64,000 nucleotides of DNA from Candidatus Krumholzibacteriia bacterium (GTDB taxonomy: Bacteria > Krumholzibacteriota > Krumholzibacteriia > Krumholzibacteriales > Krumholzibacteriaceae): contig CAWIIQ010000004.1 of the NCBI GenBank assembly GCA_963836185.1, positions 1 through 64,000 of the forward strand. Reading direction: 5' to 3'. Under the pieces are notes generated by a model. The model was given only the letters and a program-made list of their open reading frames with translations, was not told the origin of the DNA and did no database searches. Positions 1 to 19,015 of this stretch are shown in pieces. Position 1 is the first letter of the stretch, and the number at the start of each line of letters is the position of its first letter. A program made the position numbers and the translations under genes.

Positions 1-1
1 C

Positions 2-445
2 TTCGATCACGTGATCACAGGAGGTGTTCCGGTAAGGCTCGGCAAGTTCGGTGAACCCGCGTCCAACTTCGAGTATGTGACGGCCCTCTCGGACGCGCAG
101 GAAGCCGGCGGGTTTCAGGAGGAGGAAGTGTATGTAGTGCCCAATCCGGCGACGACGGAATCGATGGCTCCATGGCAGCTCGAACCGAACATGGACGATC
201 CGACCGGGATCAAGGTCGAGTTCAGGAACCTGCCCGCGTGCAGATCGACTGTGAGGGTGTTCACACTGTCCGGTGATCTCGTCCAGGTGCTGTATCACGA
301 CGGCGGCGACGGGAGAGGAACGCTCGTCTGGGACCTCGTTTCACGCAATCATCAGGACATCACGAGCGGAGTATATCTCTTCACTGTCGCCCCCGATAAC
401 GGGGCTTTCCCGAAGACGACCGGCAAGTTCGTCGTGATAAGATGA
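2..445 (+). CDS. 3' end of a large secreted protein with T9SS-like C-terminal domain (partial, begins before window); paralog of 3881-6365
   Basis: Open frame from base 2 (FDHVITGG...). VYVVPNP...VRVFTLSGDLV...WDLVSRN...SGVYLF...GKFVVIR resembles T9SS type-A/FlgD-Ig CTDs. Aligns without gaps to 5922-6365. Confidence 0.85.
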   Translation, partial: FDHVITGGVPVRLGKFGEPASNFEYVTALSDAQEAGGFQEEEVYVVPNPATTESMAPWQLEPNMDDPTGIKVEFRNLPACRSTVRVFTLSGDLVQVLYHDGGDGRGTLVWDLVSRNHQDITSGVYLFTVAPDNGAFPKTTGKFVVIR

Positions 446-556
446 CAGCAGCAGGTGCATATTATGTAATTTCAAGGATTTCGGGATATTTATCGTATTG
501 TGAGGCGGAAATGACGGGAACCCTCGTTCCTTTTTACTCCACAGAGGGCAATTTGA

Positions 557-585
557 TTGACACCTCATGTAGGGATAATTATATT
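557..585 (+). promoter_or_regulatory. sigma70-type promoter for the TonB-dependent receptor operon
   Basis: TTGACA (557-562), 17 nt, TATATT (580-585) in an AT-rich intergenic region. Confidence 0.65.
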
Positions 586-713
586 ATCCGTGAGGAATTA
601 GAGGAGAGTAACAGACCCCACACCTGTTCCCGACCCGGCATGCTAGACGTATGCCCTGGGATGGGTCCATTAATACAGGCATAGATGCTACAGGCAAGTA
701 CAAGGAGATTGAC

Positions 714-3700
714 ATGAAAGCCCGCTCTCGTTTCAGGCTGCTTGCCATTGTTCTTCCCGCCCTGATCGTTCTTACGGCTGCGCAACCCGCCATGGCGCAG
801 ACAGGAAGGGTCACGGGCAGAGTCACGGAAGCAACGACCGGCAGCCCCCTTCCCTATGCCAATGTAGTGATCGTCGGTACCAACATGGGTGGAATGACCC
901 TTACCGATGGAACTTTCACGGTCGCCGGAGTCCCCGTCGGCACTTATACCATCAAAGTGATGATGATGGGATATGCGCCCGCTGAAGCAGACCGGCATCA
1001 GGGTCGACGCCGGCCAGACCGCAAGGGTCGACTTCAAGCTCGAAGAGCAGATCGTGGGAAAGACACAGGAGATCGTCGTCGAGGCGGAACAGGTCCAGAT
1101 CGATGTGAAGAGCTCCGACGTAAAACACTCCGTGTCAAAGAGCGAGCTTCAGGAACTCCCCGTCGATGATGTCGTGGAGGCTCTCGCTCTCAAGGGCGGG
1201 ATCGTCAAGACAGGTGACGAACTTCACGTGCGAGGCGGACGTGACGGTGAGGTCCAGTTCCAGATCGACGGTGTTCCCGTGGACGATCCTCTCGGTGGCG
1301 GGATGATCTCGGTCGGTATGCTCGGAACCGACGACAGCCAGGTCATCACCGGAGGGATGGACGCGGAGTACGGCAACGCTCAGTCGGCGATCGTCAATGT
1401 CAGTACGAGAGAGGGCGGACGGACCTTCGAAGGACAGGTCCGGTATATGACGGACGATTTCGGCCGCAAGGACAAGACATATACCAACTATGACAGGTTC
1501 AGTCTCGGTTTCGGCGGGCCTACCGGGGTCAATAACCTGACTTTCTACGTATCGGGCGAGTTTACTGCCTCTGACGGTGAGAACTGGGCGATCTGGGGCA
1601 GGGACGATCATATGTCCAGTACGCCTATTTCTAACTATGCGAGCTTTGCGCAGAGACAGTCGGAAGTCGTACAACGTGCAGGGAAAGCTTGCCTGGCAGG
1701 TAAAACCCGGGATGAAGCTTATCGGTGAAGCGATCTATTCACACGCGCAGAACCACGGGTACCAGCACAACTGGAACGTCGAGGGATACGTCGCAGAAGA
1801 TATACAGGTTCACGACGCTGCGGGCGAGCCGTGAGAGTCTCGCCGAAGACGCGAGGGCCTTCGGCCCCTATGTGTCGGTCTACCACGGTCCATGGATCGA
1901 GCAGGAGGTCCAGAGGTCCCCTTCGTATCCCGGCACACTTGAGGGACGGCGAAAGACGATCTACCCGATCACTATCTATTCGAAGGTCCGCGATCCGAAC
2001 AACCCGGACGCGGGAGCTTTCATAATCAGGTACGAAAACTTCTACGCCAGGCTGGTGGAGAACGTATACGGCGAAGAGACAGAGATCATCTGGGATGAGA
2101 TGGTCGTCAACGAGGCCGGCGATGAGACCTACGACAGCAAGGTCCTCTTCGAGGGATTCCAGAATCCCGACTCGAAGTTCAGCTACTTCAGGGATGATTC
2201 GAGCTATGTATACTTCAACTCCGCGGAGCGGACGAACGTAGCTGTAAGCAACAACCTGAACCTCAAGGTGGCGCTGAACCATAATATAAACGACAACCTG
2301 CTCTATACGATCAACGTCAGCCGTTCGCAGTTCGACAGGGTCGTATCGGTCAAGGATCCCGTGACCGGCGAACTGAAGGACCCCCAGGACTTCCTCGTAG
2401 CGGGAACTCCGACGATCCTGCCGAGCGGAGTGTTCATGCTCAGCGGAGTCAGTAACGCTGATCTGGTACACGGATCCGGAATACCCCTACTTCGTCGACG
2501 CGTACGACTTCCCGTACTACCAGGACAGGACTTCGGTCATATACACGGTCAAGGGTGACATCACGTCCCAGCAGTGGTACGGACATGTATTCAAGACGGG
2601 GCTGCAGTTCATATACAACGATCTCGAGGACCAGGCGATCAACTCTCCCGGAAGCGTCAGGCGCCTCGAGGACGGCAGCTACATGATGGGTACAAGCGCC
2701 AACATATTCCATAACTTCAACCCCGAGGCTTCCTTCTATGTCCAGGACAAGTGGGAGTACCAGGGGATGGTCGTTAACGCCGGCGTCAGGTTCGATTTCT
2801 TCTCGCCTGGAAACAATACCGAGATCTCCATCAGTTCCTCGGAGATCGATCCTAACGTCGAGAAGTACAAGTTCCAGGTAAGCCCGCGTCTCGGGTTTGC
2901 TTTCCCGATCACGGACAAGGACAAGTTCCATTTCCATTATGGAAGATTCACTCAGTGGCCGAGCAGGACGTACCTGTTCCGTACCCAGGACATGGTCTCC
3001 GGCACGGGGGTCCTTGGAAACCCCGATCTCGACGAGGAGCTCACTGTCTCGTACCAGGCCGGCGTATCGCATCAGTTCACCGAGACGGTAGCGGCGAACT
3101 TCGTGGTCTTCAACAAGGACATCTACGGCCTGATCTCGTCGACAAGAGTAACGGACGAGGATCTCGGACTTCAGGGTTATCGATATATCAACAGGACGTA
3201 CGCGAGTTCCCGTGGAATGGAGATCGCGATCAACAAGCGTCTCAGCCACCATATCGGTGGCGAGATCTCCTACACCTGGTCGTTTGCCGACGGAGTCGCC
3301 TCTGACGCGAACTTCGGCGTTACCGCCGAGGGACTTTCCCATCTGCCGACGCAGGAGATGCCCCTCGACTGGGATCAGCGCCATACGCTGAACGTCACGC
3401 TAAGGCTGCAGGACCAGAACAACTGGGGAGCTACAATGGTCTACTCCTTCGGCAGCGGGCTGCCGTGGACGCCGGTCGACAGGTTCGCGAGGCGCCAGGA
3501 TCCGCTGTGGGAGAACACGATGAGGCTGGACCCGACACATGTGATCAACATTCAGGGAAGAAAGAAGTTCAATATATACGGACAGGAGCTGACGCTATTC
3601 TTCGAGGGCAGGAACCTGCTTAACGAGGATGTGCTTCTGCCCTTCGGTGTGGCTCCCGGCGCCGCTCCCGGCATGGTAAACGCCAGGATGGACGGCGGTT

Positions 3701-3846
3701 CCTATCTTACGGAGACGGGAAACTTCGGAGGAGCCTATCTGCAGGATCTTGATGAGGATGGCATCGACGACTTTACGCCGGTGAACGATCCCACGATCTG
3801 GGCCTCGCACAGGCTGTGGAGGATAGGCTTTGGATTCGAGTTCTAG
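714..3846 (+). CDS. TonB-dependent receptor with N-terminal carboxypeptidase-regulatory-like domain; four apparent frameshifts (~980, ~1662, ~1793, ~2460)
   Basis: AGGAG RBS, ATG714 and signal peptide. GRVTGRVTEATTGSPLPYANVVIVGT domain, plug motifs LHVRGGRDGEVQFQIDGVPV and GGMDAEYGNAQSAIVNV, barrel motifs SPRLGFAFPITD and GNPDL, C-terminal GFGFEF. Pieces lie in ORFs 651-1169, 973-1728, 1577-1834, 1725-2558 and 2683-3846. Confidence 0.9.
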
Positions 3847-3880
3847 GAAACTCTATGGAGAGGTAATGGAGGTCCTCAAG

Positions 3881-6365
3881 ATGATACGCAAGGGATGCAT
3901 GCTGATCGCGCTGATTGCGATGCTGGTCGTCATGCTTCACTCTCCGGCTTCCGCGAGGAAGGACGAGAGTGAGTGGAACGATAAGCTGAAGCAACTCGAG
4001 CAGATCTGGGTGTACGACGGAACAGGCATCCATAATGTCGGAAACCTGCAGATGCATGTGTGCAACTGGGGGTGTTTCGGATCGTACCCCGCCTCGAACT
4101 GGCCTACAGCCGAATATCCATCAGCGCAGTGGCCCGCCAACTCCGGCGTCGAGTATCTGTACATCGCCGGGCTCTGGATCGGGGCGAGAAAGGGCGGTAT
4201 TCCCGTCGTTTCGACTGCCGCTTACGATATCGAGTTCAGGCCCCCCGGGACCGAGAACCCCGAACGCGAAGATATACACCGCGTTCGAGGGTATCCAGGA
4301 CGGAGCGAGGCTGCCGAGCCCCGATGACGACGACAAGGACGGTGTGTCGGATGAGGACTGGCTGAACGGCGTGGACGACGATGGCGACGGAAAGATCGAT
4401 GAGGATTTCGGCGCTATCGGAAAGCAGATGTTCACCTGCTGGTTCACCGATGATGAGCCGAACGCTACGCAGATCTATCCCGAGCATACTCCCCTTCATC
4501 TCTTTGTGAGGCAGGAGAGTTATCAGTGGGAAGAGGAGCAGTTCTACGATTTCGTCGGTATAGAATACAAGATACAGAATTACGGTACGGATATCATTGA
4601 GGATGTCTTCGTCGGCTTCTTCGCCGATGGCGATGCCGGACCGCGGGACCGCGAGCAGTACTGGACTGATGACTGCACCGGTCTCTGGGAAGGTATCCGC
4701 TGCGCACAGAGGGGCGAGAATCAGGTCCCGGTGAGGATGAGCGTCGCCTACTTCTACGACAAGGACGGCGATGAGGGAAGGACGACGGGCTACCTCGGGA
4801 TCATTTTCCTGGGCCATGACATCGATCCTCTCGGCGATAACGCTCCCCAGAGGGTCGGGATAACCTCGTACCAGAACTTCTCGGGCGATCAGCCGTACGA
4901 GAACGGAGGCGACCCGACGAACGACTACCAGCGGTATGAGCTTATGAGCAGGGCAAGCAAGGATCGTAACGCCGAGGTTCCGCGTGATTACAGGATGCTG
5001 ATGGCGACAGGCCCCTTCCGCGAACTGCTCCCTGACAGCGTGATGACGCTCCAGGTAGCTTTCGTCGCGGGGAACGGCCTCGAGGGCATGCTTTCTTCCG
5101 CGGCGAGCGCGACGATGGCGTTCCAGGGCAACTGGTTCGATATCGACGGCAATCCCCAGACGGGGGTAGACGGAAGAGAGACGCCGCTGTACGGGCCGGT
5201 CAGTTCTCTGGATCCAGATTCGTGTGACACCGATTTTTCTCTCCAGTCGGCTGCCAGGGGCGAGATCCTCTGGGTCAACAACGACTGCTTCGAGGAACTC
5301 GATCTCTGGGAAGACACGAGGTGCTCGAAGGGTAACGCGGTGTTCGAGGACTTTCAGACCGGTGTGTTCGGTAATGAGACCAACGTGAACTGGCTCGTCG
5401 GTTCCGCGCCGCCTCCACCGAATATGAGGGTCCTTCCCTACGACCAGAAGATAGTCCTGCTGTGGGACAATTTCAGCGAGGTCACTCCGGACGTTTCGAC
5501 GCTCGAGTTTGATTTCGAGGGATACAGGATCTGGAGAGCCGACGGCTGGAAAAGGCCGCTCGGCACATCGGTGCTAAGCGGACCTGCCAGGGAACTGTGG
5601 CAGCTCCTGGAGGAGAGAGACCTGGTAAACGGGGTCCTCCCCGATCACGAGTTCAAAATGCCGATTTCGGAAGGTGGATGGGAATATCAGCCCCTATCAG
5701 ACCTGGAAAACAAGGACGAGATCATATCGTACTTCGAGGAAAACCTCTGGTACTATCCGCTCGATACCGTGCCCTGTCCGCCAGGCTTGACAAATCTTCA
5801 GTGCGATACGCTCGAGTCGCTCGCCAGGTACAGCCTGGGCTTCGAGGGCGGCCTGCAGTATTACCAGTTCGACGACAGGGACGTTCATAACGGGATGCAC
5901 TATTTCTACAGTATCACGGCCTACGATCATCTGCTCACTGACGGCGTGCCGATCAGGCCGAACAAGTTCGGCGATCCCTCCTCGAACTTCCAGTACACTG
6001 TGCCTCTCTCCGATGCGCAGCAGGCTGACGAGTACAAGGATGACAAGGTGTACGTGGTTCCCAACCCGGCAACGGCCGAATCGATGGCTCCCTGGGAACT
6101 CGAGCCCAACATGGATGATCCGACGGGGATCAAGGTCGAATTCAGAAACCTGCCCGCGTGCAACAGCACGGTCAGGATTTTCACACTCTCCGGTGACCTC
6201 GTCGAGGTCCTCTATCACGATGGATCAGATGGACGCGGCACACTGAGGTGGGATCTCGTATCCCGCAACGGGCAGGATGTTACAAGTGGTGTCTACCTCT
6301 TCTCGGTAGAGCCGGATGACGGCAGTTTCAGCAGGACTATCGGAAAGTTCGTAGTCATAAGATAA
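3881..6365 (+). CDS. Large secreted protein with acidic Ca-binding-like repeats, FN3-like domain and T9SS-like CTD; one apparent frameshift ~4260
   Basis: GGAGG RBS, ATG3881 and signal peptide (MIRKGCMLIALIA...ASA). HNVGNLQMHVCNWG and WPANSGVEYLY N-terminal motifs, DDDGDGKIDED, PPPPNMRV..KIVLLWD..DFEGYRIWR, CTD ending GKFVVIR. Joins ORFs 3830-4327 and 4035-6365. Confidence 0.85.
5922..6365 (+). repeat. Diverged direct repeat of 2-445 (paralogous CTD coding region)
   Basis: Gap-free alignment at offset 5920; 89 of the last 105 residues identical by manual count. Confidence 0.85.
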
Positions 6366-6398
6366 ATGACAGTGAGATCAATTTCAGGAGGTCTGGTG

Positions 6399-7343
6399 AT
6401 GTTTCGCAAGGTGTTTCTCGGGTTGGTCGTAGTGATGGTGCTGGCGCACGGCATCGCTAACGCCGGGACCGAGCCGTTTGAGAAGGTGGGTACTTATGCG
6501 GCCCAGTTTCTTAAAGTAGGCGTCTCGGCGAGAGCGGCCGGAATGGGTAGTGCGTATACGGCGGTCGCCGACGGCGCTACCGCGATCTACTGGAACCCGG
6601 CCGGTATGGTCGCGCAGCCAAGGACAGAGGTGACTCTCAATACGGTTACCTGGCCGGCTGACATCGATGTCTATTTTGCAGCCGCCACATTTTCTACTCC
6701 GTACCTTCCGGGGACCTGGGGAGTCAGCGCACGAGCCCTGACGATGGATCCCCAGCTCGAGCGGACGATCTATATGCCCGAAGGTACGAACCGGTACTTC
6801 GACGCGGGTGACATGTCTTTCGGCCTGTCATACGCGATGTATTTTACCGACAAGTTCTCAGCCGGTATTACGGCCCACTTCATCCATATGGGTCTTGCCG
6901 ACAAGAGCGTCCAGACGATGGCGTTCGACTTCGGCCTCATCTACCGGATCGGCATCCAGGGAATGAAGCTCGGTATGATGATCCAGAGTCTCGGTTCCGA
7001 GGTCGATTATGACGACAGGGCGTCAAAGATGCCGACCCTCTTCAAGGTCGGTCTGAGTATCGACGCTTACAGGAGAGGCGCTCACGCACTGCTCGCGTCC
7101 GGAGAGTTCGCTCATCCTTCCGACAACAAGGAGAGGATGAACGTCGGATTGGAATATGGATTCAACCAGTTCTTCTTCCTGCGTTCCGGATACAATATCG
7201 ATTACGATACGCAGGGTCTTGCATGGGGAGTCGGCTTCAGGTTCGATACGAGCCAGACTTCCGATATCGGTTTCGATTATGCCTGGGAGGACCTCGGGTA
7301 CCTCGGACAGGCGCATCGCTTCACCCTCAATTTCAGTTACTAG
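6399..7343 (+). CDS. PorV/PorQ-family outer-membrane beta-barrel
   Basis: AGGAGG RBS and signal peptide. KVGTYAAQFLKVGVSARAAGMGSAYTAVADGATAIYWNPAG, GLEYGFNQFFFLRSGY, terminal HRFTLNFSY. Confidence 0.9.
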   Translation: MFRKVFLGLVVVMVLAHGIANAGTEPFEKVGTYAAQFLKVGVSARAAGMGSAYTAVADGATAIYWNPAGMVAQPRTEVTLNTVTWPADIDVYFAAATFSTPYLPGTWGVSARALTMDPQLERTIYMPEGTNRYFDAGDMSFGLSYAMYFTDKFSAGITAHFIHMGLADKSVQTMAFDFGLIYRIGIQGMKLGMMIQSLGSEVDYDDRASKMPTLFKVGLSIDAYRRGAHALLASGEFAHPSDNKERMNVGLEYGFNQFFFLRSGYNIDYDTQGLAWGVGFRFDTSQTSDIGFDYAWEDLGYLGQAHRFTLNFSY

Positions 7344-7382
7344 GCTGGGGGGTGCCGGGCCTATTCAGATCGGAGGCCTGTA

Positions 7383-8895
7383 ATGAGAGAAACACGAAAC
7401 ATCACGTTAATGACAATTATAGCTCTGCTGCTGCTTGCGCCGGCAGCAGCGGGGCAGGTCGCAAGAGGGGAAGGGGATTTCGAGTTCTTCCTCGACACCT
7501 CCGCTCTTCCCCTGGAAAACGGCAGGATACTGGGGCTCTTCCAGATCGCCATCCCAGTCAAGGAAATCCACTACAAGGAAGATGAACGGATCGTTCGAGG
7601 CCGCTGTAAAGGTCGAGCTCGTCCTTATGCGCGGCGACGAGAAGATCCACGAAAAAGGTCTTGTGATCAGGGACAGCCGGGATGAAAAGCCCATGATCAA
7701 TGATCTCTCGGGATTCATATACATGTCCGATTCCTGTACAGTCGATCCCGGAAGCTATACTGTCAGCGTCCGGGTCGAGGATCTTCAGCGCAAGAAAAAG
7801 ACTCTGATGGGCCTGATCAGCAGCAAGAATCTCTATTCCAGGATCGAGGACCTCGAGATAGAGATAGCGGGCTTTGCTCCAGGCCGACTGGCCCTCAGCG
7901 AGCCGGTGCTGCTATGGAGCCGGGAGAGCGGGGGGCGTTACGTTCCCAATCCGATGCAGATATACGGATTGAAGAACGATACACTCTCCTTTTTCGCCAG
8001 CGGCCTGGTGCCGGATGGAGATGCCGTCTGATTCAGTCGATGTTTACCTCTCGATCCTCGATTCCAAGGGAGAGACGGTAGGCACGACGAGCGGCCTGGT
8101 CCCTGTAAGAAATGAAAGGGTACTGATTTCGGGTCTTTCGACGTCAACACGTGGCCGGCCGGAAACTACACGGCCAGGGTAGAGGTCCTGTACGGCGGAG
8201 TCCTGAGGGGAGTGTCCGCGAAGGATTTCAGCGTCGCGTGGCAGATTGCTTAACTGGCAGAAGCCGCGCCGAGATATCCTTGTCGAGGCAAAGGTAGATC
8301 TTCGATGATTCCGACTTCATGGAGTTCCAGAAGATGAGCATCGGCGAACAGGAGCGGGTGCTGGTCGCTTTCTGGAAAAAGCACGATCCGACTCCGCATA
8401 CAGCAGTCAATGAACTGTACGATATATTCCAGAACCGGGTCAGGTACGCGGACGCTAATTTTCCGGCGGCAACACCCGGGGGGCGCTGAATCCCCGCGGG
8501 CTGCTCTACATAAAGTGGGGCCCTCCCGATGAGATCATCTCGGAAGCGGTTCCCTTCAACAGGACCGATCTGAACGAATCACTCGGAAAGCTCGAGGACA
8601 AGTACAAGGTCGTATCCATTCCCCGTACAAGGGATTGGGCACGGATTTCGTGATGATGAAGGAAGCGACGAGCGGTATCAACAGACCCTACAGGGGCGGC
8701 GGAATGGATACCGGCGCGTACGAGCTGTGGATGTACGTGATGAGAGGTGATCCCCTCTTCGAAAAGGACAGGGTAATGATGGGTGAGGCCGGTATGAGGT
8801 TTCTGTTCGTCGACAAGGACGGTATAGGAAACTTCCTGCTGGTAGGCACTTCAGAGGAATTAGAGGGATTCGGCGTTACACCTGCGGATGAATAA
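7383..8895 (+). CDS. GWxTD-domain protein, broken by about seven indels (sequencing error or pseudogene)
   Basis: Signal peptide; LALSEPVL and YVPNPMQIYG. Reassembled frames give FWKKHDPTPHTAVNELYDIFQNRVRYADANF, RGLLYIKWGPPDEI, YELWMY and FLFVDKDGIGNFLLV, the usual GWxTD-domain layout. Confidence 0.75.
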
Positions 8896-8936
8896 CGCTG
8901 AAAAGAAGCGCCCTGACCGGCCCCGGGAATTTTTCG

Positions 8937-8965
8937 TTGACAAGGGGGTTCGCATAAAGTATTTT
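8937..8965 (+). promoter_or_regulatory. sigma70-type promoter for exbB-exbD-exbD-tonB
   Basis: TTGACA (8937-8942), 17 nt, TATTTT (8960-8965). Confidence 0.55.
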
Positions 8966-9125
8966 ACAGCAGTTAAGAGGCTGATACGGGCTGATTTGCG
9001 TGTTTCCATGGTTATTCTTCCAGCCCGGGGAGACTGATTGGGCCTCTCGACTTTTTCAACGGAAAATCCGTAACTGAGAGAAAGTACGCTATAAGTACTA
9101 TTTATCCCTAAAAGGAGCGCGTCGC

Positions 9126-9986
9126 ATGGTAAAGACAAACTCTTCGGTCAGGTCGATTCTTCTCATATCGATCCTCCTCGCAGCATTCGCTTCAGTCGCC
9201 GTCGTGGCGCAGGAAGCTGAGGAGATCGTTGAGCCTGAATTCACCGTCCAGGCCGAGACCGATTCACTTGCAACGGCAAAGAACGACTCGATGTTCGTAG
9301 CGAAAGCCGTCGAGGATATGGCTGAGAGTAAAAGGCTCGGAGCCGTTCTTTACAACCTCAAGCACAGCGGTATCGGTGAGAAGTACGTTCAGGGCGGAAA
9401 CTTCATGCACGCCCTTCTTTTCGCCTCGATCATCGGCTTTGTCTTTATTATCGAGAGGTTCGTTACCCTGTCGCGCGCCCGTGTAAACGTCAGAAGGCTG
9501 ATGTCCGAGGTCCTTTCGGCCATGCGGGCAGAGGGTCTTGATGGAGCCATGCGGGTCTGCGAAAGGACGAGAGGTCCGATCGCCGCCGTGCTCCACTCCG
9601 GCCTGCTCAGGGCGGGCCGAGGTCCGGACGCCGTGAAAGAGGCTATCGAGACGGCTGGCAGTATCGAGACATCGTTCCTCGAGAGAGGTCTCGTCGCGAT
9701 CGCCACGGTCGCGCAGGTCGCGCCGCTTCTCGGATTCCTAGGTACGGTATCCGGTATGATCAGCGCGTTCGCCGCTATCGCGTCGGCCGAGCAGGTCAGC
9801 GCGAAGGTCGTGGCTTCCGGTATCGAGGAAGCGCTTATCACGACGGCGACAGGTCTTATTATCGCTATTCCAGCGAGTATCGGCCATTCGTTCTTCGTTT
9901 CACAGATCGACAGGTTCGTTCTTGAGATGGAGGAAGCCTCGGCCGAGCTCGTGAACGAGCTCATCGAGATGGGTATGGGGCAGTAA
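9126..9986 (+). CDS. exbB: MotA/TolQ/ExbB proton channel protein
   Basis: APLLGFLGTVSGMISAF and GIEEALITTATGLIIAIPA; N-terminal signal peptide and acidic extension. Confidence 0.93.
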   Translation: MVKTNSSVRSILLISILLAAFASVAVVAQEAEEIVEPEFTVQAETDSLATAKNDSMFVAKAVEDMAESKRLGAVLYNLKHSGIGEKYVQGGNFMHALLFASIIGFVFIIERFVTLSRARVNVRRLMSEVLSAMRAEGLDGAMRVCERTRGPIAAVLHSGLLRAGRGPDAVKEAIETAGSIETSFLERGLVAIATVAQVAPLLGFLGTVSGMISAFAAIASAEQVSAKVVASGIEEALITTATGLIIAIPASIGHSFFVSQIDRFVLEMEEASAELVNELIEMGMGQ

Positions 9987-10006
9987 CCCGTCCGGAGTAA
10001 TAAAAA

Positions 10007-10417
10007 ATGATCAAGAAGAGAAGCAAAGTATCTTCCGAATTCAGTACCGCCTCGATGTCGGACATCAACTTCCTTCTGCTCATCTTCTTCCTGGTGAGCA
10101 CGATGTTCGCGGTCGAAAAGGGACTGCCGATGGCCCTTCCCGGGCAGCAGTCCAAATCGGTGAAGCTGAAGCGGGACAACGTTCTCACGATTCAGGCGTT
10201 CGCGAACGGATCGATCGTGATTAGGGGGACCGGGCCGGTAGGCATGAGGGATCTCAAGGAGATCATCGAGAACAAGCTTATCGCCAATCCCAAGCTCGTA
10301 GTCGTCATCGAGACGCACCCCGACGCTGAATACGCGGTCATGATCGATATCCTTGACGAGCTGAGGCTCGCGAACGCACAGAGGATCTCTTTGAGAACGA
10401 TGAAGAGTAGTGGTTAA
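10007..10417 (+). CDS. exbD: Biopolymer transporter ExbD
   Basis: SMSDINFLLLIFFLVST transmembrane segment with conserved Asp; follows exbB. Confidence 0.92.
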   Translation: MIKKRSKVSSEFSTASMSDINFLLLIFFLVSTMFAVEKGLPMALPGQQSKSVKLKRDNVLTIQAFANGSIVIRGTGPVGMRDLKEIIENKLIANPKLVVVIETHPDAEYAVMIDILDELRLANAQRISLRTMKSSG

Positions 10418-10432
10418 CAGAGGAGAGACGCC

Positions 10433-10840
10433 TTGAAGATTACTAAAAAACAGGGTGTACAGAACGCGATCCCGACAGGATCGATGGCTGATATCATCTT
10501 CCTTCTGTTGATCTTCTTCATGGTCACGACGATCTTCAAGATGGAAGAGGGCCTTCCGATCTCATTGCCGCGCGCCGAAACAGGCTCGGAGCTTGAGCGG
10601 GAGAAACTGATGAATATCTGGGCCGACCGTTACAGCAGGGTCAGCATCAACGACAAACTGGTACAGGTCGATCTTATCGATATCGTGGTAACAAAGCGGT
10701 TCGAAGAGAACAGGAGCCTGATCGTAGCCTTCAACGTCGACAGGCGCACGAAGTATGACCTGGTGGACCGTATCATGGAGCAGCTGAAGGAAGCTAACGC
10801 CGTCAACGTGACATTCGTGTCCGTCGGCGATGATGATTAG
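10433..10840 (+). CDS. exbD: Second ExbD paralog (TTG start)
   Basis: SMADIIFLLLIFFMVTT; AGGAG RBS. Confidence 0.92.
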   Translation: MKITKKQGVQNAIPTGSMADIIFLLLIFFMVTTIFKMEEGLPISLPRAETGSELEREKLMNIWADRYSRVSINDKLVQVDLIDIVVTKRFEENRSLIVAFNVDRRTKYDLVDRIMEQLKEANAVNVTFVSVGDDD

Positions 10841-10861
10841 ATAATCGAAAAGGGGGCCTTC

Positions 10862-11494
10862 GTGGCCGTTACCGCTGTTGCAAACCAGAAATTCAAGGCG
10901 GGGTACAACAGATACCTGCGGAACGCTCTTTACGCGACGCTAGTTCTGCATTTCGTAGGCATCTACTTTTCGCCCCCCTTCGAGTTCAAGCCTTACGTAC
11001 TGAAGGAGCAGGAGTTCATCGCGATCGATACGGCCGAGGACTTCGAGCTTCCTCCTCCTCCGAAGGAGATCGATCAGCCCGTGGTGCCGATCGCCGCAGA
11101 GGAAGGCGAGGAAGTAGACGAGGAGACCGAGATCGCTCCGACGAGTTTCGACCGTATCGAGAACCTTCCTCCTCCGCCTCCGCCTCCGTCCGAATCGTCG
11201 TCGGAATTCTACGCGTTCGATGAGCCGCCGCAACTGATCCGGTACGTTCCGCCCAGTTATCCCGCGCTTGCGAGGCAGGCCGGTATCGAGGGAACGGTAC
11301 TGCTGCGCGTAGTGGTCGGAACGGACGGAAAGGTCGAGAGCGCTACCGTCATCCAGTCCGATGTGACGCCGGCGATGGAAAAAGCCGCCATGGCGGCGGC
11401 GAGGCAGTTCCTCTTCAAACCCGCGAAACAGAGGACGGTCCCTGTAAGGGCAAGTATGGCTGTGCCGATCAGGTTCAAGCTGCACGGCAGCTGA
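10862..11494 (+). CDS. tonB: Energy transducer TonB
   Basis: N-terminal TM with His, Pro/Glu-rich linker, YPALARQAGIEGTVLLRVVVGTDGKV C-terminal domain. Confidence 0.93.
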   Translation: MAVTAVANQKFKAGYNRYLRNALYATLVLHFVGIYFSPPFEFKPYVLKEQEFIAIDTAEDFELPPPPKEIDQPVVPIAAEEGEEVDEETEIAPTSFDRIENLPPPPPPPSESSSEFYAFDEPPQLIRYVPPSYPALARQAGIEGTVLLRVVVGTDGKVESATVIQSDVTPAMEKAAMAAARQFLFKPAKQRTVPVRASMAVPIRFKLHGS

Positions 11495-11518
11495 TCTGTC
11501 GCGAATATCAGGAATCCA

Positions 11519-11550
11519 GGGCCCGGGCATATGCTCCGGGCCTTTTTTTT
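11519..11550 (+). terminator. Rho-independent terminator after tonB
   Basis: GGCCCGGG..CCGGGCC stem followed by a T8 run. Confidence 0.85.
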
Positions 11551-11648: not shown

Positions 11649-11716
11649 ACAATTAAGTGTATCGTTTTATAGAGTAACCGGTTTCACAGTCCATGACACA
11701 AGGGAAGGCTTCAACG

Positions 11717-13087
11717 ATGTTTCGAGTAAAGAGAGGATTATCGCTCTGTGCGATAGCGGTCGGTGCGGCGATCATGGTGTCAACGGGAGTAACGGGAGCA
11801 TTCTCCACGGAGAGGATCCTGTCGCTGAGGGAATGTATTGATCTCGCGCTTGAAAACAATCCCGACATGGGGATGGCGAGACAGTCATTAAAGAAATCAG
11901 AGAGCAACGTGCTTGCCAGTTACGGCAGCCTGCTTCCCAACCTTCAGGTCGATTTCTACGCGGGGCACAGATACTACGGCCCCTCTTCCGTGCTGATCGA
12001 TGATTCGGGCCGTCCTGTGCAGTCGCAGGGATTTGACTATGAGGACTATACCTTCCGCATCGGTTCCGACATCGTCCTCTGGGACGGGGGCGCCAATTAC
12101 GCGAGGGTCAGGCAGTCCAATCACAATCGAGAGGGAGCCAAGGAAGAGCTTCAGTACAACTACGACATGATCACCGCCACCGTGATCCGCTCCTACTATA
12201 ACCTTGTCAGGTACAAACGGCTGACCGTCGTCGCCGAGGAAAGTGTCGATCAGGCCCTGCAGAGCCTCGAAAGGACCGAAGCGCTGCTGGAAGTCGGGTC
12301 GGGCACACGCGCTGATGTCCTCAAGGCGAAGGTCCTTCATTCGAATACGAAGCTCGATCTGATCAGGGCGACCAACGCGGTAGAGATAGCCCGCGAGGAT
12401 CTGATCGCCGTGCTGAATATGGGTGACTACTCCGGCGTCAGGGTAGATACGACTCTCACGATGGAGATGTCCAATCCCGATCCGACAAGCGAGATAGCTT
12501 TCGCGATGGACAACAGGTCGGATCTGAGGGGGCTGAGAGCCTATCTCGAAGGGTCCGATGCCGGGGTGAGGGTCGCCCAGAGCGGCTGGCTGCCGACGCT
12601 GGGAGCGAACTTCGGATATTACTGGAGTGATCGCGAGATGGCCGACAATCTCAATTTCTTCAGAGAGGAATACTCCTGGAACGTCACGGCCTACGTGCGG
12701 CTGAACGTCTTCGACAGGTTCTGGACCAGCGCTAACGTCAAGACCGCGAAAGCCGATCACAGGATAACGGAATACCAGCTCGAGAAGAGCGAGCTCAACG
12801 CCGTCAAGGAGATCAAGAGCCTCATAGTCGTGATAAACGAGGCGATAGAGCGTGTTGCGGTCGCGACGGAGACGGTCGAGCAGGCTGCCGAGGATGTACG
12901 GCTCGCCGAGGAGAGATACAGGGTCGGGGCGGGTACGATGCTCGACACTATCCAGGCGCAGGTCTCCCTTACCCAGGCGAAGGCCGATGTTATCGGCGCC
13001 AGGTGTGACTACCTGATCGCCATTGCCGACCTCGACAGGGCGACGGGCAGCGAATCGAGGCTCAGAGCCGGGCTGGAGGGAGAATGA
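11717..13087 (+). CDS. TolC-family outer membrane efflux protein
   Basis: [33 protein letters not shown], two outer-membrane efflux repeats; alternative start 11693. Confidence 0.9.
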
Positions 13088-13088
13088 T

Positions 13089-13769
13089 ATGCTGATAAAG
13101 GTCAGCGATGTCAAAAAGATATATGAGGTCGGGGTACAGAAGATAGAGGCGGTCGCGGGGATCGATCTGGAGATCGACCGGAACGAGTATGTAGCGATAA
13201 TGGGCCCCTCGGGGTCAGGCAAGTCGACATTCATGAACCTGCTCGGATGTCTCGATACGCCTACATCAGGTGACTACTGGCTCAACGGCAAGGAAGTAAG
13301 CAACCTCAGCGACGATGAGCTTGCCAGGATCAGGAACAGGGAGATAGGCTTCGTATTCCAGACCTTCAATCTCCTTCCGAGGGCGACAGCCGCCCAGAAT
13401 GTGGAGCTGCCGCTGATCTACGGTGGTATCTCCGCGGAAGAACGGCGCACAAGGGCCGCGGAGGTGCTCGAATCTGTCGGGCTGACCGACAGGGCGAAGC
13501 ATCGTCCCAATGAGCTCTCCGGTGGACAGCGCCAGAGAGTGGCGATAGCGAGGGCTATGGTCAACAGGCCTTCTATAATCCTCGCCGATGAGCCTACCGG
13601 AAATCTCGACAGCAAGACAGGCATTGAGATCATGGCACTCTTCGATACGATCCATAGTTCGGGTAATACGATAGTGATGGTTACTCACGAGGAGCATATC
13701 GCCGACTACGCGAAGCGTGTGATAAGACTCCTCGACGGTAAGATAGAATCGGATGTCAGGACTGGTTGA
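13089..13769 (+). CDS. ABC transporter ATP-binding protein (MacB/LolD-like)
   Basis: [34 protein letters not shown]. Confidence 0.95.
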
Positions 13770-13847
13770 ATGCCTGACGATTGAAAGCCGCGATCCGCTC
13801 TGATCGAAAGGCTTTCGGAAACATAAGCGAAAAATTCAGGAGGAGAG

Positions 13848-15098
13848 ATGACCAGGAAGCACTGGATCGCCATCGGTGTCGTTCTCGTTGTGGCCGTGCT
13901 TGTGTTGATCAACCTGAAGGCGAAGGGTGGCAAAGAACTCGCCGTCCAGGTCGAAGAGGTGTCACGCAAGGACCTCGAGATGATCATATCAGCTTCGGGC
14001 AGCATCAAGCCGAAGAGACAGATCGACATCAGCGCCTCTAACATCGGCAAGGTCACAAGGGTCGCTGTTAAAGAGGGGGACTATGTCGAGCAGGGACAGT
14101 TCCTCCTCCAGATCGATCCGATACTGCTCGAGACGACTGTTGACAGGCTCGAGGCTGCCGTCCAGTCGGCCAAGGCGGGGGAGCGGCAGGCCAGGTATCA
14201 GCTGGATCAGTACGAGAGCGATCTCGAGCGGGCGGAAAGGCTTTTCAAGCAGGGATACCTCACCGACAAGGAAGTCAAGACCGCACAGACAGCAAGGGAT
14301 GTCGGGACCTCGAACCTCGAAGCGGCCGGGCAGCTCGTGAGGCAGCAGGAGGCGCAGCTCTCAAGCGCGAGGCATAATCTCCAGGAAGTCACGATCGAGG
14401 CCGAGATGTCAGGTATCGTAACCCGCCTCAACGTAGAGGAGGGCGAGATCGCCATAATGGGAACGCTGAATAATCCCGGCACGGTGCTGATGACTATCGC
14501 CGACCTCTCGACGATCGAGGCCGAAGTAGAGGTGGATGAGACGGAAGTGGTCAGCATCGAGACGGGACAGTTGGCCGAGGTCACCCTTGACGCCTTCCCC
14601 GATACCTCGTACGCGGGGATCGTCACCGAAGTCGGTAACAGCCCCATCCTGTCTTCCTCGGTGTCGGGACAACAGGGAGTCGATTTCAAGGTCGTGATCA
14701 CCGTGACGGATACTATTCCGCATGTCAGGCCCGGCCTCTCGGCGGACTCGGAGATCATCGCCGACAGGGCCGAAAACGGACTGGCGATCCCGATCCAGAG
14801 CCTGACTGTAAGGCAGGCGAAGGACCTGAAGGGGTACTCCGCGGCCGCTGATTCCGCTTCCGCGGATTCGACGGCGGTGAAAAAAGAGGAGAGCAGTGAG
14901 ATCGAGGGAGTCTTTGTCGTGGTCGACGGCAAGGCGGAGTTCAGGCAGATAAAGATCGGCGTCGCCGGCCAGACGCATTTCGAGGTCGTCTCCGGGCTCG
15001 AGGAAGGCGACAAGGTCGTAAGCGGCAACTTCAGGGCTATCAGGGACCTCAGGGACGGACAGAGGGTCAAGATCACGGAGAAGGCCGCGAAGAAGTAG
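13848..15098 (+). CDS. Periplasmic adaptor / membrane fusion protein (MacA/HlyD family)
   Basis: N-terminal TM, VKEGDYVEQGQFLLQID lipoyl motif, coiled-coil hairpin, EVVSGLEEGDKVV. Confidence 0.92.
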   Translation: MTRKHWIAIGVVLVVAVLVLINLKAKGGKELAVQVEEVSRKDLEMIISASGSIKPKRQIDISASNIGKVTRVAVKEGDYVEQGQFLLQIDPILLETTVDRLEAAVQSAKAGERQARYQLDQYESDLERAERLFKQGYLTDKEVKTAQTARDVGTSNLEAAGQLVRQQEAQLSSARHNLQEVTIEAEMSGIVTRLNVEEGEIAIMGTLNNPGTVLMTIADLSTIEAEVEVDETEVVSIETGQLAEVTLDAFPDTSYAGIVTEVGNSPILSSSVSGQQGVDFKVVITVTDTIPHVRPGLSADSEIIADRAENGLAIPIQSLTVRQAKDLKGYSAAADSASADSTAVKKEESSEIEGVFVVVDGKAEFRQIKIGVAGQTHFEVVSGLEEGDKVVSGNFRAIRDLRDGQRVKITEKAAKK

Positions 15099-15107
15099 TG
15101 CAGGGTC

Positions 15108-16337
15108 ATGCTGATATTTCAGGGAATGAACATCGCCCTCAGGGCGCTTCGTGAGAACAAGCTCAGGACCTTTCTCACTCTTCTCGGCAACATCGTAGGG
15201 ACGATGTCTGTCATCGCTGTCGTGTCGCTCATCGGCGGTATCGATGACTACGTCAAGGAGAAGGTAGCCGGGGAGGGGAGCAATGTCTTCACCATCGAGC
15301 AGTTCAATTTCTTCGAGGCGATAACGGATCTCGACGCCTTCCTCGAGGCTATCGCGCGCAATCCGAGGATAAAACTCAGCGATGTCGACTATATGCGCGA
15401 CAGGATACCCTCGGCCTCATACGTATCGGCGGCTGCGGACAATCAGGCCCAGGTAAGCTACCGTGAAGAATGGGTCGACAGGATATCGATCAGGGGGAGG
15501 TCGGAGCAGTATCCCATGATCGAGGATGCCCCCCTCTCCATGGGCAGGCACATCTCTCGCCTCGAGGACCAGAAGTCGGCGAACGTGGCTGTCCTCGGAT
15601 GGGAGGTGTACACGAGGCTCTTTCCTCGGGGTGACCCCCTCGGAGCGAGGATCAAGATAGGAAGAAAGCATTTTACGGTTATCGGTGTCGTCGAGGACCT
15701 CGGCACCGTCCTCGGTGAATCGAAGAACAGGTTCGTATATGTCCCGGTCAATACATTCCTCAAGCTTTACGGCTCGAGGACGTCGATAGAGATCAAGGTC
15801 AAGGCAGCCGATATAACCCTCCTTCAGCAGGCCGTCGATGAAGCGACGATGGCCATGAGGATCAGGCACGGGCTAAGGCCGCTCGAGGAAGACGACTTCG
15901 CGGTCGTGACTTCGGAGAATCTCATATCTCTGTGGCAGAAGATATCTACCTCGATATTCAACGCGCTGATATTCATCGTCTCGATAGCGCTCGTAGTCGG
16001 CGGCGTGGTCCTGATGAACGTGATGCTCGTCTCCGTCACGGAGAGGACGAAGGAAGTTGGCTTGAGAAAGGCCCTCGGCGCGAGAAAATCCAACATAGTA
16101 TGGCAGTTCATCGTGGAATCGGTGACCCTTTCGCTCATAGGCGGGATCATAGGTATACTGATCGGGTTCACGATCGCGGCGGTCATCTCGATAGTCTCTC
16201 CGCTCCCGTACGTGGTGGCCCCGTGGTCGATAGCGGCGGGGCTGATAGTCACCTTCTTCATAGGTATCGTGTTCGGGACATACCCGGCGAGTAAAGCGGC
16301 GAGCCTCGATCCCGTGGTCGCGCTGCATTCCGACTAG
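15108..16337 (+). CDS. MacB/FtsX-like ABC permease
   Basis: NKLRTFLTLLG, VMLVSVTERTKEVGLRKALGA, PASKAASLDPV. Confidence 0.93.
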   Translation: MLIFQGMNIALRALRENKLRTFLTLLGNIVGTMSVIAVVSLIGGIDDYVKEKVAGEGSNVFTIEQFNFFEAITDLDAFLEAIARNPRIKLSDVDYMRDRIPSASYVSAAADNQAQVSYREEWVDRISIRGRSEQYPMIEDAPLSMGRHISRLEDQKSANVAVLGWEVYTRLFPRGDPLGARIKIGRKHFTVIGVVEDLGTVLGESKNRFVYVPVNTFLKLYGSRTSIEIKVKAADITLLQQAVDEATMAMRIRHGLRPLEEDDFAVVTSENLISLWQKISTSIFNALIFIVSIALVVGGVVLMNVMLVSVTERTKEVGLRKALGARKSNIVWQFIVESVTLSLIGGIIGILIGFTIAAVISIVSPLPYVVAPWSIAAGLIVTFFIGIVFGTYPASKAASLDPVVALHSD

Positions 16338-17692: not shown

Positions 17693-19015
17693 ATGCGACG
17701 GGTTATTCCAGCGATGACAGCGCTCCTTATGGCCGTGGCGGCTCTTACTTTCTCGCCCCGTGATACTGCCGGCCAGAATATGACCAGGTCGGTCAGAAGG
17801 CCGTTCGAGCTTACCGCTTCGCAGAGCATCGATGCGGAGGGTAACGTGCTGCTCGTGATCAGCACGGCGATCGATTACAGACGCCTCGTGTTCTTCCGCC
17901 AGCCGATCGGCTACGTCGCCGACTACCGGGTATATATCGAGGTCCGGGATGAAGAGGGCAAGAGGGTGCGGGGTGAAGTCATCGAAAAGACGGTGACGAC
18001 CCCGGAATACGAAATGACCCGCAGCGCCGGGATGCTCTCCGAGGTGAAGAAGAATATCCCGCTGGGCTCGGGGTATTATGACGTGAATGTCACTGTCGAG
18101 GTGGCCAGGACCTCGCTGAAATACGAACGAAAGGCCGAGGTGAAGATATACGGGAGGGACCAGGGACTCTTCGAGATGTCCGACCCGGTCTTCTCCGCCC
18201 CTGAAGAGAGCGGGACGGGCCGCAAGCCTCCCGCGGGCGAGCTCGATTTCTCCATCTGCCCGAACGAGATACCTGACGGATACAGGCAACTCGCCGGCGA
18301 TGTCTTCATCGGTTTCGAGGGATGGATCCGGATGAGCTGGACCGTCCTCTCCCCCATGGAAAATAGGACCAGCCGGGGAATGGAAGTGACTGTGAAGGTG
18401 CAGGACCCGCAGAAACATGTGAGGGCCTATACGAGGCAGACTTTCGAGGTCGATGGAAAGGGGAGGGGGATGTTCTGTATCGACATGAACGTCGACGACC
18501 TGCCTCTCGGCTTCTACGAGGTCTCAACGGCGGTGTCGATCCCCAACTCGACAAAGAAGGTCGTAAGGACCGGGACGTTCACCATGCTACTCGGCAGGGC
18601 GATGTTCGACAAGTATTTCGAGGATACCCTGGAACTTCTCGGGCTCACGGCCGATGACGAGGCTGTCGAAAGGCTTCGGGCGATCTCACCGGAATCGCGC
18701 ATAGGCGAGTGGAACCGGTACTGGAAATCGAAGGATCCTACGAGGACGACAGATCTCAACGAGGAACTGAGCGAGTTTCTGCGCCGCGTCAGGTTCGCTC
18801 TGGAGAACTTCTCCGAGCATGGTCCAGGCTGGAGATCCGATATGGGGAAAGTATATATACAACACGGTCCTCCCGATAACGTGGCCGACCGCAGCGGGTC
18901 GACGCTCGGCAGCAGGCTGAAGATCTGGTATTATTATTCCAAGGGACTCGCTTTCATATTCGAGGATTCTATGGGGTCTGGCCTATACAGGCTCTACGAT
19001 ACGAGGAGTATCTGA
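17693..19015 (+). CDS. GWxTD-domain protein
   Basis: Signal peptide; YWKSKDPTRTTDLNEELSEFLRRVRFALENF..GPGWRSDMGKVYIQHGPPD..IWYY. Confidence 0.88.
   Translation: MRRVIPAMTALLMAVAALTFSPRDTAGQNMTRSVRRPFELTASQSIDAEGNVLLVISTAIDYRRLVFFRQPIGYVADYRVYIEVRDEEGKRVRGEVIEKTVTTPEYEMTRSAGMLSEVKKNIPLGSGYYDVNVTVEVARTSLKYERKAEVKIYGRDQGLFEMSDPVFSAPEESGTGRKPPAGELDFSICPNEIPDGYRQLAGDVFIGFEGWIRMSWTVLSPMENRTSRGMEVTVKVQDPQKHVRAYTRQTFEVDGKGRGMFCIDMNVDDLPLGFYEVSTAVSIPNSTKKVVRTGTFTMLLGRAMFDKYFEDTLELLGLTADDEAVERLRAISPESRIGEWNRYWKSKDPTRTTDLNEELSEFLRRVRFALENFSEHGPGWRSDMGKVYIQHGPPDNVADRSGSTLGSRLKIWYYYSKGLAFIFEDSMGSGLYRLYDTRSI

Follow-up and report, generated by a model that had tools for sequence, protein, structure and literature searches.

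In a window of 64,000 nucleotides at the start of contig C4 (GenBank CAWIIQ010000004.1) of a Candidatus Krumholzibacteriota genome (3.5 Mb, 6 contigs, 92.5% complete), we analysed a run of nine genes, in the core of which a TonB-dependent receptor, a large secreted partner with a type IX secretion system (T9SS) C-terminal domain (CTD) and an outer-membrane barrel of the PorV family follow one another. From our analyses we conclude that this trio is a real and conserved combination of known parts, which is apparently undescribed, and with moderate confidence we interpret it as a TonB-dependent importer with a surface partner that is tethered by the barrel. The named relatives of the partner are mostly from Candidatus Krumholzibacteria.

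Six-frame reading and family scans of positions 1-11494 recovered nine genes on the + strand in the order given by an initial annotation of the sequence, i.e. a CTD protein, the receptor, the partner as a second CTD protein, the barrel, a GWxTD protein and a motor of ExbB, two ExbD and TonB. The tight spacing reported there was likewise correct, with 34 nt between receptor and partner, 33 nt between partner and barrel and 39 nt between barrel and GWxTD gene. A same-genus genome is collinear with the run (83.6% over 12,031 aligned bases) and carries the genes in intact form, and compared with it the run contains 12 single-base frameshifts, four in the receptor, one in the partner and seven in the GWxTD gene, with none in the barrel and Ton genes. 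Judged by comparison with relatives, sequencing errors are the likeliest cause of these frameshifts, because sprA is also split in the same assembly.

The receptor pieces are 82-96% identical to the intact same-genus copy, which possesses a plug and a C-terminal barrel, with 26 bits for PF07715 against a cut-off of 23.9 and 84.6 bits for PF00593 against one of 27. The receptor profile matches the structures of Cir, PfeA and FepA, and the receptor alignment contains a candidate TonB-box-like stretch before the plug, which was judged by the consensus only. The SusC/RagA family model TIGR04056 gave 28.1 bits on the receptor N-terminus only, against a cut-off of 368, and was unlisted for the intact copy.

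For the partner, no Pfam family covering the whole protein and no SusD match were found. Its signal peptide ends in an A-x-A site and has no lipobox cysteine, so that the proposal of a partner that is not a lipoprotein agrees with the signal sequence. The intact copy was modelled from a 70-row alignment of relatives (predicted local distance difference test 84, predicted template modelling score 0.84) and is predicted to be mainly beta. In its fold, the modelled N-domain comes close to the beta-supersandwich found in glucodextranase (Z 20.4) and in glucoamylase (Z 20.1), both at a root-mean-square deviation (rmsd) of 3.0 Å over ~250 residues and 8-9% identity, with wider fold matches including enzymes of the glycoside hydrolase families GH116 and GH94 (Z 17-20, rmsd 3-4 Å, 8-12% identity); unlike in these enzymes, there is no catalytic barrel in the partner model. 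Several Asp, Arg, His and Trp positions of the N-domain are conserved, which is compatible with a putative binding site, although the domain may still be an enzyme. An acidic loop with two DxDxDG-type motifs is conserved as well and, by its motif type, may bind calcium. The assumption that the CTD adopts the Ig-like T9SS fold was upheld by the model, which matches PorZ (5m11; Z 12.5, rmsd 2.2 Å, 94 residues, 28% identity), and the PorZ model is also the top-scoring profile for this domain.

The tail of the partner belongs to a minority. On a generic-tail profile, which was seeded from 21 tails of the same genome, 23 of 123 CTD-like tails in the genome scored below 56 bits, and all seven CTD genes located directly upstream of PorV-family genes have such atypical tails (18-50 bits), while none of the 100 tails scoring at least 59 bits is encoded directly before a PorV-family gene. 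This pairing fits with cognate barrels protecting particular tails, as described in the available part of PMC10202324. The barrel itself matches PorV of F. johnsoniae (6h3i, E 1e-11) and lies below the equivalog cut-offs for PorV (NF033710, 72.8 bits vs 250) and PorQ. In a tree calculated with a quick method from 30 rows, it falls into a clade of Krumholzibacteriota and Eisenbacteria barrels (SH-aLRT, i.e. Shimodaira-Hasegawa-like approximate likelihood ratio test, 99), apart from the PorU-linked PorV; the tree gives no resolution on a single origin of this barrel and the Bacteroidia trio barrels described below. The idea of a dedicated PorV thus stands, in that the barrel looks dedicated and the general shuttle PorV sits beside porU elsewhere in the genome. 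In total, the genome has 11 PorV-family matches. One weak match (L014:8821-10155) is BamG-like (NF053685, 63 bits, below the cut-off of 250).

Conservation of the run was assessed in 40 loci, which were picked for long contigs and cover 8 of 9 families of the phylum. Conserved synteny, which the initial annotation proposed as a check, was found, with the order receptor-barrel-GWxTD-ExbB kept across these loci: the receptor is located upstream of the barrel in 39, and GWxTD, ExbB, two ExbD and TonB are present in 39, 40, 37 and 33 loci, respectively. The partner is in the locus in 32 cases, in 31 of them directly before the barrel. At the level of the phylum, a close orthologue of the barrel is present in 119 of 121 genomes (best E ≤1.7e-86, ≥47% identity), the receptor in 116 at E ≤2.3e-89 (118 at 1e-15) and the partner family in 120. 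An apparent absence of the receptor in one scaffold genome (G065) was rejected, since a run of N exactly at that spot marks an assembly gap.

Related loci extend beyond the phylum. Nine of the 13 Eisenbacteria-titled loci (among 80 loci) encode receptor, partner, barrel and GWxTD protein, and the remainder consists of two short contigs with the last three genes and two loci with a double barrel and no GWxTD gene. Among the 32 most distant loci, the titles of which include Ignavibacteria, Rhodothermaceae, KSB1, Calditrichota and Marinimicrobia, 30 have a related receptor gene upstream of that for the barrel, with the partner in between in 15 and direct adjacency in the other 15. A Bacteroidia-type barrel occurs in 5 of 24 GldN-positive genomes, and in all five it belongs to a receptor-partner-barrel trio. 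The receptor profile, applied to five GldN-positive genomes, detected long receptors in two of them, both followed by a CTD-type protein of 1240-1380 amino acids (aa) and then by a PorV-family barrel. The GldN-positive partner shares an N-domain stretch with the Krumholzibacteriota partner (hhalign probability 91.6, E 8e-7, 114 columns), and one of these trio genomes has GldK, GldM and GldN over the cut-off. In four of the five loci (L192, L196, L197, L198), the trio is located beside a putative greA-like gene.

As stated in the initial annotation, sprA, porK/L/M/N and porU are absent from the window; sprA and porU are present elsewhere in the genome. The view of the run as a minimal T9SS-related system was not borne out, because an outer module of SprA, PorU and PorV and 106 CTD matches (TIGR04183) are encoded elsewhere. 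SprA is over the cut-off of TIGR04189 at C2, and PorU (NF033707, 553.9 bits, cut-off 420) lies beside the barrel paralogue with the highest score on the PorV model. This porU-porV operon (C1:2026855-2041053, L006) is followed by genes for an inactivated M6-like metalloprotease, the CTD of which is atypical, for an NHL protein, for a protein of 1136 aa and for a protein with POTRA; another M6-like protein, which likewise has a barrel of its own, is found at L007:6983-11242.

The inner motor of the T9SS was searched for with hidden Markov models, which divergent homologues could escape. At this level, GldM was not found in the genome and GldK gave only matches below the cut-off, as in unrelated controls. 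SprA is present in 121 of 121 genomes of the phylum (120 over cut-off), whereas GldL was over the cut-off in 0 of 121 (two weak matches; the GldL model had no positive control) and GldN was found in 0 of 121, with the same GldN model finding 24 of 101 Bacteroidota genomes. GldK and GldM were over the cut-off in the control genome only and in none of four genomes of the phylum. In distant genomes, SprA occurs in 40 of 42 and GldL_N in 0 of 42, no positive control having been matched. At the level of these models, the T9SS of this phylum is without recognisable GldK/L/M/N. We considered the possibility that the trio substitutes for the Gld motor, as the barrel profile matched 1 of 24 GldN-positive vs 51 of 77 GldN-negative genomes, a contrast obtained with a profile built without Bacteroidia sequences. 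This was rejected, because the related, more distant trio occurs alongside GldN in five of those 24 GldN-positive genomes.

If we combine these results, uptake could proceed as follows. Receptor, partner and barrel carry cleavable signal peptides, by which they reach the periplasm. The partner, with its T9SS-type CTD, would be exported by the SprA translocon of the cell, for which the genome encodes SprA, PorU and the PorU-linked PorV. Its atypical CTD may then dock on the dedicated barrel and escape PorU uncleaved, like PorZ on PorQ; cognate barrels that retain uncleaved CTDs are described in the available part of PMC10202324. The barrel would reside beside the receptor, with the beta-supersandwich of the partner facing it, so that the partner may capture the receptor's ligand, perhaps a glycan. 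An association of this kind has a parallel in C. hutchinsonii, where PorV co-purified with a TonB-dependent receptor, according to the accessible text of PMC8564354. A cellulose protein of that species, CHU_1557, is at most a speculative candidate for the partner there. The neighbouring ExbB-ExbD-ExbD-TonB, likely a general Ton motor, would open the plug of the receptor, and the extra partner paralogues might represent exchangeable partners on a single receptor-barrel platform. In GldN-negative Bacteroidota, one genome can have as many as 17 matches to the barrel subfamily, a multiplicity as expected of substrate-specific uptake cassettes.

Several observations weigh against an importer with a tethered partner. 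Kin genomes among the 40 loci are not independent, and in two families (f7 and f9, 8 loci) the partner is missing from the locus and the receptor abuts the barrel; in the five f7/f9 genomes checked, the partner is encoded elsewhere. The near single-copy, phylum-wide conservation, with barrels at least 47% identical, fits better with a housekeeping function than with a typical polysaccharide locus, and no CAZyme (carbohydrate-active enzyme) or other catabolic gene flanks the run within the window. Beta-supersandwiches frequently have a structural role, and sharing this fold therefore says nothing on function; the generic-tail test is partly circular because of the 21 tails of this genome in the seed. 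Moreover, three full-length partner paralogues in the genome have no barrel directly downstream, and at C1:527007-528908 the N-domain of the partner, frameshifted, is combined with a generic CTD, similar half-length matches occurring in relatives; this domain can therefore also be ordinary T9SS cargo.

The core, near single-copy status of the trio leads to the main alternative, namely that it is a T9SS accessory with a housekeeping role, comparable to PorF. Here, the receptor would import or recycle something required for surface attachment or for upkeep of the envelope (a glycan or a cleaved tail), with the partner as a fixed subunit in the manner of PorZ. Besides the strong conservation throughout the phylum, its co-occurrence with SprA (121 of 121 genomes of the phylum, 40 of 42 distant genomes), the PorZ-like CTD of the partner and the GWxTD genes flanking both the run and sprA would be in line with this role, and PorF is a TonB-receptor-like T9SS component that has been proposed to import glycans (PMC12704123, available in part). 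However, the high number of barrel matches in GldN-negative Bacteroidota (as many as 17 in one genome) suggests substrate specialisation, and with a Bacteroidia-type barrel in only 5 of 24 GldN-positive genomes, a canonical T9SS seems to work without this barrel. Overall, we consider a housekeeping role doubtful.

Mere clustering of envelope-biogenesis genes by co-regulation, with partner and barrel serving to display an adhesin or enzyme on the surface independently of the receptor, appears quite unlikely to us. It would account for the partner-barrel pairs without a receptor that are common in the genome (six others), for paralogous partners beside an unrelated lipoprotein family and for the GWxTD protein showing the lowest conservation of all members (23-30% identity outside the order). 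However, where the partner moves, receptor and barrel are directly adjacent (9 of 40 loci of the phylum, 15 of 32 distant loci), and the trio recurs as far off as GldN-positive Bacteroidota.

The suggestion of a T9SS without GldKLMN in which Ton motor and receptor power or conduct the export of proteins, be it by an Oar-like route via the receptor or by release from SprA that TonB drives, the GWxTD protein acting as coupler, is very unlikely in our view, and we attach just as little probability to a receptor-barrel-GWxTD unit that couples ExbBDD-TonB to type IX secretion, i.e. a Ton-powered, possibly ancestral T9SS in which TonB frees cargo by pulling via a PorV-bound receptor. Of this proposal, the absence of GldK/L/M/N stood at the level of the models used, with SprA in 121 of 121 genomes vs GldL and GldN in none, and GldK and GldM in the control genome only; moreover, the 106 CTD matches require an energy source, and Oar exports PopC with ExbBD/TonB (PMC6434023, available in part). 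One receptor piece of the window also scored 34.8 bits on PF25183, which we take to be an Oar-linked family, but PF25183 was unlisted for the intact receptor copy. Several findings weaken TonB-driven export itself. Five genomes contain both the related trio and GldN, and the one examined for GldK and GldM has these two as well. A separate promoter-like site precedes the Ton genes, which do not adjoin the trio in the 13 Eisenbacteria-titled or the 32 distant loci, and the four other plug-domain receptors of the genome need a motor too. Furthermore, a folded partner of 800 residues exceeds the pore of a TonB receptor.

The organisation of the run and the coordinates of its features are given in Table 1. 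The nine genes are probably not a single operon, because promoter-like sites are located at 557-585 and 8937-8965 and the gap between the GWxTD gene and exbB amounts to 230 nt. In relatives, a promoter-like site within 330 nt past the gene upstream of the Ton genes was detected in 32 of 40 loci, compared with 1 of 39 in a control after the barrel gene. No Ton genes are adjacent in the 13 Eisenbacteria-titled loci, and none of the 32 most distant loci has GWxTD or Ton matches; in one Effluviviaceae locus, the Ton genes follow ~4 kb further on. The genome encodes five plug-domain receptors, i.e. four besides that of the run, as well as a second ExbB/ExbD pair, possibly of the Tol type, and more TonB_C proteins elsewhere. 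Because of the separate promoter-like site, the four other receptors and the detachment in other phyla, the ExbB-ExbD-ExbD-TonB set is probably the general Ton motor of the cell, shared rather than dedicated.

Table 1 Features of the receptor-partner-barrel run and the adjoining Ton genes (positions in the window).
Feature	Position	Strand	Characteristics
CTD tail, upstream partner paralogue	2..445	+	C-terminal 147 aa: end of FN3 region and CTD; 75% identical to partner end
Sigma-70-type promoter-like site before receptor	557..585	+	11/12 consensus matches; consensus match only
TonB-dependent receptor, ~1040 aa	714..3846	+	Signal peptide, N-terminal extension, plug, barrel; PF13620, PF07715, PF00593; 4 frameshifts
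Secreted partner, ~830 aa	3881..6365	+	Predicted beta-supersandwich, acidic DxDxDG-type loop, FN3-like region, atypical T9SS CTD; 1 frameshift
PorV/PorQ-family outer-membrane barrel, dedicated paralogue	6399..7343	+	NF033709 191.8 bits, cut-off 90
GWxTD protein, ~500 aa	7383..8895	+	Two predicted Ig-like domains and a GWxTD domain after a signal peptide; 7 single-base frameshifts
Sigma-70-type promoter-like site for Ton genes	8937..8965	+	Near-consensus; conserved in relatives
ExbB/TolQ-family proton channel subunit	9126..9986	+	PF01618 E 2e-31
ExbD 1	10007..10417	+	PF02472
ExbD 2	10433..10840	+	PF02472
TonB	10862..11494	+	PF03544, TIGR01352
Intrinsic-terminator-like hairpin closing Ton unit	11518..11544	+	10-pair stem, T tail

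The fourth conserved member of the locus, the GWxTD protein, is likely to be an envelope accessory protein. TIGR04514 gave 40 bits on the window piece (cut-off 28) and 64.4 bits on the intact copy, and the nearest Atlas clusters are GWxTD as well. The model comprises two Ig-like domains and a helical and alpha/beta C-terminal part, the fold of which may be BamE-like. A fold search with residues 1-266 (Foldseek, VIA) returned generic Ig-like matches only, nothing significant was obtained with the profile against solved structures, and a literature search on GWxTD yielded no relevant paper. The genome contains six GWxTD matches. Three of the genes are located divergently from sprA (C2:321280-336629, L004), with two permease genes in between that we take from their sequence to be LptF/LptG-like; GWxTD genes hence flank the translocon gene and the receptor-partner-barrel run alike. 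A second GWxTD gene is also found downstream of the run (window 18647-18937), as in 14 of 40 relative loci. Between run and second GWxTD gene, the Ton genes are followed by a TolC-ABC-MFP (MacAB-like) exporter (window 11693-16337).

The CTD protein at the beginning of the window is the tail of a paralogue that is 72% identical to the partner. Its front is located at the end of contig C2, where C2:392485-394143 matches partner residues and continues in frame into the window, and a V/A-type ATPase operon immediately precedes it (L015:9531-20000). Elsewhere in the genome, a lipoprotein-like family of ~760 aa (43-58% identical; C3:375363-377669, C1:1206392-1208638 and C1:1263518-1265848), for which no Pfam match was obtained in the two members scanned, adjoins an orphan partner paralogue as well as a protein of 443 aa, the C-terminal 180 aa of which resemble the FN3 end and CTD of the partner. 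Other CTD-barrel sets comprise a giant CTD protein (open frame of 5372 aa) followed by a barrel and a tetratricopeptide repeat (TPR) protein (L010:3-11416), and a glucodextranase-module CTD protein followed by a barrel and a CBM48 protein, without an adjacent receptor (L012:5748-14962). As far as gene content can tell, the latter set hints at a use of alpha-glucans.

If the importer with a barrel-tethered partner is correct, it would represent another design for the surface partner of a TonB-dependent importer, in which the T9SS secretes this partner and a private barrel, in place of a lipid anchor, holds it, in several little-studied phyla related to the Fibrobacterota-Chlorobiota-Bacteroidota group. 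The related trio in GldN-positive Bacteroidota would make this testable in groups where cultured hosts may exist. Our results also sharpen the question of how the T9SS is energised in a phylum with SprA in 121 of 121 genomes, yet without recognisable GldL and GldN. In the literature covered, which excluded most subscription papers, we found no description of the receptor-partner-barrel arrangement; Extended Data Table 2 of PMC12611786, on how SprA and SusCD are distributed, may be relevant here.

Among known systems, Oar-PopC of Myxococcus xanthus likewise combines a TonB-dependent transporter with ExbBD/TonB nearby, but the cargo of the run has a T9SS signal, the genome encodes the SprA translocon and there is no sign of export via the receptor. 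The T9SS of Melioribacter and Ignavibacterium, with SprA, PorV and Plug in the absence of other T9SS genes (PMC11705866, available in part), resembles that of our genome in having translocon and PorV, whereas Krumholzibacteriota also possess PorU over the cut-off; the accessible portion of that source mentions neither a receptor trio nor an energy source. PorF (PG0534) and CHU_1606 are TonB-receptor-like proteins that are tied to T9SS function, CHU_1606 having co-purified with PorV (PMC8564354). Compared by description only, they differ from the run in that an operon with cognate barrel and CTD partner is not described in the parts of these sources that were available. With PorZ-PorQ, PorU-PorV, SprB-SprF and PG1035-PorP, the run has in common that the gene of a CTD protein lies next to that of a PorV-like barrel of its own, and a PorV-like barrel holding an uncleaved tail is known from the available parts of PMC10202324 and 10.1101/2020.05.13.094771. 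In contrast to PorZ-PorQ and PorU-PorV, the body of the partner consists of a predicted beta-supersandwich and FN3 rather than a PorZ or PorU body, the barrel is below the PorV and PorQ equivalog cut-offs, and a TonB-dependent receptor is linked. SusC/SusD (RagA/RagB) equally pairs an N-terminally extended TonB-dependent receptor with a large surface partner, encoded next in the operon, that is predicted to bind the ligand. However, the receptor of the run is not of the SusC family, its partner is a non-lipoprotein without a SusD match and with a T9SS CTD, and the run has a third gene, which encodes the PorV-family barrel.

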